Assembly: GCF_009931435.1 (NCBI RefSeq)
Contig: NZ_CP043414.1
Reading direction: 5' to 3' (one strand)
DNA from: Escherichia coli
Lineage (GTDB): Bacteria > Pseudomonadota > Gammaproteobacteria > Enterobacterales > Enterobacteriaceae
DNA length: 64,000 bases
Below, piece by piece: positions 54,505 to 55,517 of this stretch. Made by a program: the position numbers. Position 1 is the stretch's first letter; every line of letters begins with the position of its first letter.

Positions 54505-55517
54505 TACGTTCAGCACATTACCCCCAGGTCGGATAAGACGCGGCAAGCGTCGCATCCGGCAATGTCTGCCCAGTTCTGGAATCGCGCTTCCATAAAACAA
54601 AAAATCCCTGTCACCATCCTCTACATTCTCTTGTTTAGCGTTTTTCTACGTTTATTCTTCCGTCACACAGATAAATTCATCCGTTGCCAATCTGTCAACG
54701 GATGTTATCATGTTGCCAATTTGTCAACGGACGTGATGAAGAATGCACATGATAACTCAAAAAGCATTGAAAGATGCTGCGGAAAAATACCCGCAACATA
54801 AAACGGAGTTGGTGGCTCTGGGGAACACGATTGCTAAGGGATATTTCAAAAAACCTGAGTCATTAAAAGCAGTATTCCCTTCTCTGGATAACTTCAAATA
54901 TCTGGATAAGCATTATGTTTTCAATGTCGGGGGCAATGAATTACGTGTTGTAGCAATGGTCTTTTTTGAATCGCAAAAGTGCTACATACGTGAAGTTATG
55001 ACGCATAAAGAATACGATTTCTTTACCGCCGTTCATCGTACTAAGGGGAAAAAATGATTGCGATTGCCGACATCTTACAAGCAGGAGAAAAGCTAACTGC
55101 TGTGGCACCTTTTCTGGCGGGTATTCAGAACGAGGAACAATACACCCAGGCGCTGGAACTGGTAGATCATCTGCTGCTCAACGATCCTGAAAACCCCTTG
55201 CTGGATCTGGTGTGTGCCAAAATAACCGCGTGGGAAGAATCAGCGCCCGAATTTGCTGAATTTAATGCCATGGCTCAAGCCATGCCTGGCGGTATAGCTG
55301 TGATTCGTACCCTTATGGATCAATATGGTTTAACCCTTTCCGATCTGCCGGAAATTGGCAGTAAATCGATGGTGTCACGCGTTTTGAGCGGGAAGAGGAA
55401 ATTAACGCTGGAACACGCTAAAAAACTGGCAACGCGATTCGGCATTTCTCCCGCCTTGTTTATTGATTAACGCGACGTGCCGGATGCGTCGCATCCGGCG
55501 CTTCAAACAACGATTTA

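Follow-up and report, generated by a model that had tools for sequence, protein, structure and literature searches.

The two tandem palindromes immediately upstream of higB in this Escherichia coli chromosome are very probably the two operators (O1 and O2) by which higBA, a chromosomal operon of the type II toxin-antitoxin class, regulates itself. The pair is already known, and it agrees with the characterised HigA sites of K-12 higBA. All positions refer to the window, that is, the whole 64,000-nt stretch of contig NZ_CP043414.1 (assembly GCF_009931435.1) that was analysed. The preliminary description had proposed an autorepression operator of a type II toxin-antitoxin operon, and this proposal was supported by the identity of the genes, by repression of a lacZ fusion in K-12 (PMC2814082), by nanomolar binding (PMC8138530) and by conservation among homologues. 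What a naive reading of the raw sequence picked out was thus right: a type II toxin-antitoxin operator of the textbook autoregulatory kind, in an E. coli locus that has been well studied. This adds little to what is known of the locus.

The region is the chromosomal rlmG-higB-higA-fadH locus (higBA, ygjNM) of an E. coli strain. Between positions 54300 and 55800 the order is the 3' end of rlmG, REP-like palindromic elements, a 180-bp AT-rich spacer, higB, higA, a REP-like element and the convergent fadH. The operator pair sits directly 5' of a toxin-first higB-higA bicistron, which encodes a protein of the HigB_toxin family and a HigA whose helix-turn-helix (HTH) domain is C-terminal, and the start of higA overlaps the stop of higB by 4 nt (Table 1). 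HigA of the window hardly differs from the E. coli HigA of the crystal structures (5IFG, 6IRP, 6JQ4, 6KML and 6KMQ; E 1e-86). In a megablast search the 941-bp region was matched in 4,376 of 5,426 complete E. coli genomes, where it was always annotated as higB/higA, and its identity to K-12 derivatives was 98.6%. REP/BIME-type palindromic elements lie on both sides of the higBA module (54451-54611 and 55471-55500). Those on the upstream side, 54451-54611, matched the Rfam family naRNA4 with 40.3 and 28.1 bits, both below the gathering score of 59.5.

Table 1. Features of the higBA control region and operon (window positions).
Feature	Position	Strand	Description	Evidence
Operator O1	54683..54699	.	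17-bp dyad core GTTGCCAATCTGTCAAC	Repeat search; position and core kept in 28 homologous loci
Predicted -35, TTGCCA	54684..54689	+	Inside left half-site of O1	Promoter scan
Predicted extended -10, TG-T-TATCAT	54703..54711 (hexamer 54706-54711)	+	Between O1 and O2	Promoter scan
Operator O2	54712..54728	.	17-bp dyad core GTTGCCAATTTGTCAAC	Repeat search; kept among homologues
higB	54743..55057	+	104-aa RelE-like ribosome-dependent mRNA interferase toxin	ORF; PF09907 HigB_toxin, E 3.6e-22; RefSeq annotation
higA	55054..55470	+	138-aa antitoxin and repressor, C-terminal HTH_3 (PF01381)	ORF, Pfam, PDB match

Two exact copies of the 20-mer GTTGCCAATYTGTCAACGGA were found in the 64-kb window, at 54683-54702 and 54712-54731, 29 bp apart. 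The same 20-mer was found 0 times in 100 dinucleotide-preserving shuffles, even when 3 mismatches were allowed. The repeat search gave a 26-nt direct repeat (54683-54708 and 54712-54737) with 88% identity and 29 bp from start to start, and both copies hold the 17-bp dyad GTTGCC-N5-GTCAAC. In the general form of the dyad, GTTGNC-N5-GNCAAC, the centres of the half-sites are separated by 11 bp, or roughly one turn of the helix, as expected of an HTH dimer. O1 has an extended palindrome, CATCCGTTGCCA-ATC-TGTCAACGGATG (54678-54704), with 12-nt arms that are complementary at 11 of 12 positions and a 3-nt centre. O2 is a weaker palindrome, GTTGcCA-ATT-TGtCAAC, with 7-nt arms complementary at 6 of 7 positions and no extension. 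The tandem near-identical palindromes that had been reported upstream of higB at 54681-54730 are therefore real, lie where they were placed and are repeated far above chance. The string quoted for them, ttgccaat(c/t)tgtcaacgg, occurs at 54684-54701 and 54713-54730, and a claimed spacing of about 30 bp was measured as 29 bp. A search of the 64-kb window for further HigA sites with the degenerate dyad at up to 1 mismatch gave one extra match (32021-32037), whereas 2.6 were expected.

The promoter scan, a consensus prediction, gave a sole sigma-70 match on the + strand of 54400-55600, which fitted at 10 of 12 positions with a 16-nt spacer. O1 overlaps the predicted -35 element and most of the spacer. 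The -10 hexamer is within the 12-bp gap that separates the two 17-bp dyad cores, and O2 starts one base past this hexamer and spans the expected +1. The operators thus overlap the core promoter elements predicted from the consensus, with the -35 inside O1 and the -10 abutting O2. The preliminary description had the palindromes overlapping the -10 region, which is close; according to the scan, however, the -10 lies between the two sites, which themselves cover the -35 (O1) and the expected start (O2).

In K-12, higBA has one promoter, which was mapped by primer extension, and inverted repeats at this promoter were drawn as putative binding sites (Christensen-Dalsgaard, Jorgensen and Gerdes 2010, PMC2814082). 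A fusion of the K-12 promoter to lacZ was on only in the higBA deletion strain and was shut off by HigA supplied in trans, and Lon was required for induction of higBA by chloramphenicol or serine hydroxamate (PMC2814082). The fusion primers of that study delimit K-12 DNA equal to window positions 54618-54748 (131 bp). This fragment contains little besides the two palindromes and the promoter (O1, -10, O2), and the operators of the window are orthologous to this HigA-repressible fragment, with 2 substitutions in the alignment. The O1-O2 sites of E. coli are also named in PMC12266136. The operator sequences themselves, used as query in the full-text literature, gave no match. Primary work on O1 and O2 of E. 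coli K-12 higBA is reportedly that of Yang 2016, Xu 2019 and Jadhav 2020, and a 2019 paper in Int J Biol Macromol is said to deal with HigA of Shigella flexneri.

The K-12 operon shares with this strain the locus, the promoter, the two dyads and their spacing. At 54695, K-12 has G, with which its O1 is a perfect 12+12 palindrome, whereas this strain has T, with which the O1 palindrome is imperfect and now matches O2. At 54712, K-12 has A, whereas G in this strain completes the GTTG/CAAC core of O2. The T at 54695 and the G at 54712 make the two copies of this strain more alike than those of K-12. Outside the operators, C>A at 54749 relative to K-12 changes HigB Leu3 to Met (L3M), and a second in-frame ATG arises. 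We infer that the two base differences from K-12 do not abolish binding in this strain. Binding of HigA or HigBA to the sequences of this strain is presumed by carrying over the K-12 result, which is reported there by secondary sources.

One genome per species was scanned for homologues of HigA. The scan gave 37 loci with 42-100% identity, from Escherichia, Kluyvera, Pseudocitrobacter, Buttiauxella and many marine Gammaproteobacteria; higB was located in 28 of the 37, and 150 nt upstream of higB were extracted from each. Distant loci were fetched partly by means of the peptide PEIGSKSM, and the conservation of PEIGSKSM follows in part from the search itself. Retrieval of loci made no use of the DNA motif, and the operator footprint is therefore an independent result. 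The O1 dyad GTTGNC-N5-GNCAAC was present in all 28 loci, at -53 to -61 from the higB ATG (-70 in one). The O2 dyad was recognisable in 23 distinct loci at -27 to -31, except in locus L023 (-42), which is also the locus with the outlying O1. Among the 23 distinct loci with both sites, the spacing from O1 to O2 was 28 bp in 12, 29 bp in 8, 26 bp in 2 and 30 bp in 1. The last 90 nt upstream of higB (2,160 positions in total) contained 37 perfect matches to the dyad; the rest of these loci, 107,475 positions, contained 5.

Information content in both sites was about 2 bits at G1-T2-T3-G4, C6, G12 and C14-A15-A16-C17, and about 0.1 bit in the flanks. The dyads are thus kept upstream of homologous higBA while the flanking DNA has diverged, which constitutes a phylogenetic footprint. 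Apart from the two dyads, the comparison shows no conserved non-coding element ahead of homologous higBA operons. In the homologues the gap between the dyads contains T-rich -10-like hexamers, a GGAG Shine-Dalgarno sequence comes after O2 in most cases, and the left half-site of O1, at the -35 position, reads TTGACT in the non-enterobacterial members. On the protein side, the HTH segment PEIGSKSMVSRVL-G-R-L of HigA is invariant across homologues, and the N-terminal dimerisation and toxin-binding domain diverges.

Several loci depart from the common arrangement. Five of them (L012, L013, L014, L016 and L019) have a perfect O1 and a degenerate O2 (for example ATAACCATTTTGTCAGG), and effectively contain one operator. 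In Escherichia sp. MOD1-EC7003 and E. albertii (L007:619-1917 and L008:4-1222), an unrelated ORF of 260-286 aa precedes higA in place of higB. In Citrobacter sp. 18056 (L014:1136-1510), higB has an early stop (MHVITQKALRMRRRDFLNTGLN followed by the stop codon) and O1 is kept.

A mechanism consistent with these data can be proposed. Each dyad, GTTG(C/A)C-N5-G(T/G)CAAC, would bind one HigA dimer through its two C-terminal HTH domains, and the distance of 11 bp between half-site centres fits one HTH dimer per dyad. The bound dimer may be free or may be held within a HigB-HigA2-HigB complex. HigA on O1 (over the -35 and the spacer) and on O2 (past the -10 and across the start) would exclude RNA polymerase, presumably by steric hindrance, and the operon would be repressed. 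Degradation of HigA, which has been published as Lon-dependent upon amino-acid starvation or translation arrest, would then derepress the promoter. The spacing of 28-29 bp corresponds to about 2.7 helical turns, which would place the two dimers on different faces of the DNA, and simple side-by-side cooperativity of the two HigA dimers is not obviously supported.

Which form of HigA acts as the repressor in the cell can be read in another way. Free HigA might not be the physiological repressor; HigB-HigA2-HigB might take this role, with occupancy of the sites set by the toxin:antitoxin ratio (conditional cooperativity, as in relBE, phd/doc and ccdAB). Ratio-dependent regulation of this kind usually acts on two adjacent operators, and HigBA of E. 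coli and Shigella was reported to bind DNA more tightly than HigA alone (PMC7160566). This report is in conflict with another secondary source, a review in which the E. coli operator has similar nanomolar affinity for HigA and HigBA and E. coli higBA is classed under 'antitoxin as the sole repressor' (PMC8138530, citing Jadhav 2020). HigA expressed alone from a plasmid repressed the fusion in the higBA deletion strain (PMC2814082), and HigA of this family is a folded protein that lacks the disordered tail with which antitoxins of conditional cooperativity systems typically bind the toxin. We consider ratio-dependent repression rather unlikely here, and the operator pair is not filed under the conditional-cooperativity family of the relBE, phd/doc and ccdAB type, on the understanding that the sources conflict on the effect of HigB.

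Two further readings of the palindromes were considered. The repeats might be mere duplicated promoter elements, that is, two TTGCCA -35-like boxes of tandem promoters, or might be sites of a regulator other than HigA. The TTGCCA of O1 is indeed the best -35 match, and O2 likewise begins with TTGCCA. A second promoter that uses the TTGCCA of O2 as its -35 was considered and rejected, as no acceptable -10 follows it and the scan gave a single promoter on the + strand. The right half-sites, GNCAAC, are no promoter elements, yet they are conserved like the left ones (about 2 bits). The dyads co-occur with the invariant HTH of HigA over a very wide phylogenetic distance, repression needs HigA (PMC2814082), and the rest of the 64-kb window shows no enrichment of the dyad, as the one extra match was below expectation. 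Duplicated promoter boxes or a foreign regulator are accordingly highly improbable. It could also be argued that the palindromes work as RNA, in a 5'-UTR hairpin that controls translation of higB or mRNA stability, as O2 is located at or just downstream of the expected +1 and a perfect 10-nt inverted repeat (54704-54713 and 54747-54756) joins the -10 region to the region of the higB start codon. The predicted fold of 54712-54760, however, had -5.4 kcal/mol and z = +1.0, weaker than most shuffles, and the transcript lacks O1 and probably also the initial bases of O2. The operators matched no Rfam family, the arms of the 10-nt inverted repeat match at only 8 of 10 positions in K-12, and what is conserved is a DNA dyad pattern with a free centre, not compensatory changes. 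A function as RNA is hardly credible on these grounds. The 10-nt inverted repeat itself (GTTATCATGT and ACATGATAAC) is probably fortuitous, given the 8 of 10 matches in K-12.

The identification of O1 and O2 as HigA operators may also be viewed against their variation within the species. Both copies are kept in nearly all of the 2,847 E. coli genomes that have this promoter. E. coli E400634 (L003:1600-1660) has a precise deletion of 29 bp, equivalent to window 54684-54712 and equal to one repeat unit. By this deletion O1 and O2 are fused into a single hybrid dyad (CCGTTGCCAATTTGTCAACGG) and the -10 hexamer is lost, with higB and higA intact. The deletion allele occurs in about 10 genomes at most, as 10 of 2,847 matched the deletion-allele query at >=99% identity. 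Of the 4,376 E. coli genomes in which the locus is present at least in part, about 1,500 lack the promoter, O1, O2 and the beginning of higB (~80 codons) but retain an intact higA as an orphan antitoxin; in E. coli A0 34/86 (L002:1400-1690), an example of this type, the equivalent of window positions ~54657-54982 is deleted. In a further allele (L004) only a 3' remnant of higA is left. These natural deletion alleles, with a single fused operator or with higA orphaned from its promoter and toxin, are ready-made variants for probing the contribution of each operator.

Comparable arrangements are found in other systems. The sehAB operon of Salmonella Typhimurium has the toxin-first order and an antitoxin with a C-terminal HTH, as in higBA, and SehB is 46% identical to HigA. 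SehB binds as a dimer to promoter DNA in which the putative -35 and -10 boxes carry two palindromes (PMC7160566); the original paper of 2013 on the sehAB palindromes is marked as retracted. The sehAB operon differs from higBA in its locus and in the sequences of its palindromes. HigA of Proteus vulgaris Rts1, HigA of Pseudomonas aeruginosa and GraA of P. putida resemble the present case in having two operator sites in the promoter, an HTH antitoxin dimer on each and a toxin-first operon. In GraA and PaHigA, one operator region is bound by two dimers. In all three antitoxins the HTH is N-terminal and the fold is arranged differently, whereas the HTH of E. coli HigA is C-terminal. HigB-HigA of P. 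vulgaris did not bind E. coli hig O1-O2 DNA (PMC12266136), which indicates that the recognition sequences are unrelated.

Outside Enterobacteriaceae, the relative orientation of the two sites was found to differ. In six loci (L017, L027, L029, L034, L038 and L040) O2 matches the reverse complement of O1 at 6-7 of the 7 non-core positions, as in the pair GTTGACTTATTGGCAAC and GTTGCCAATAAGTCAAC. The outer half-sites of these loci are GTTGACTT and the inner half-sites GTTGCCAA. O1 and O2 of Escherichia are direct repeats, unlike these mirror-image pairs. Taken together, O1 and O2 in the mirror-image arrangement form a super-palindrome of ~45 bp that is centred on the -10.

No description of the mirror-image or family-wide geometry was found in the accessible literature, a scope outside which the primary E. 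coli papers fall. The family-wide consensus, the geometry and the orientation flip are only mildly new material, and would be a modest addition if they have not already been described in the primary papers. The consensus, GTTGMC-N5-GKCAAC in two copies with a spacing of 28-29 bp, could serve in the annotation of operators in this HigA subfamily and as a basis for binding experiments. It is possible, and we put this forward tentatively, that the paired-operator geometry, with two such dyads 28-29 bp apart bracketing the -10, is an ancient and near-invariant signature of the C-terminal-HTH HigA family across Gammaproteobacteria. The orientation pattern could mean that a defined higher-order complex, a dimer of dimers reading or bending the -10 spacer, is the real repressing species, and that the relative orientation of the sites was flipped during evolution.
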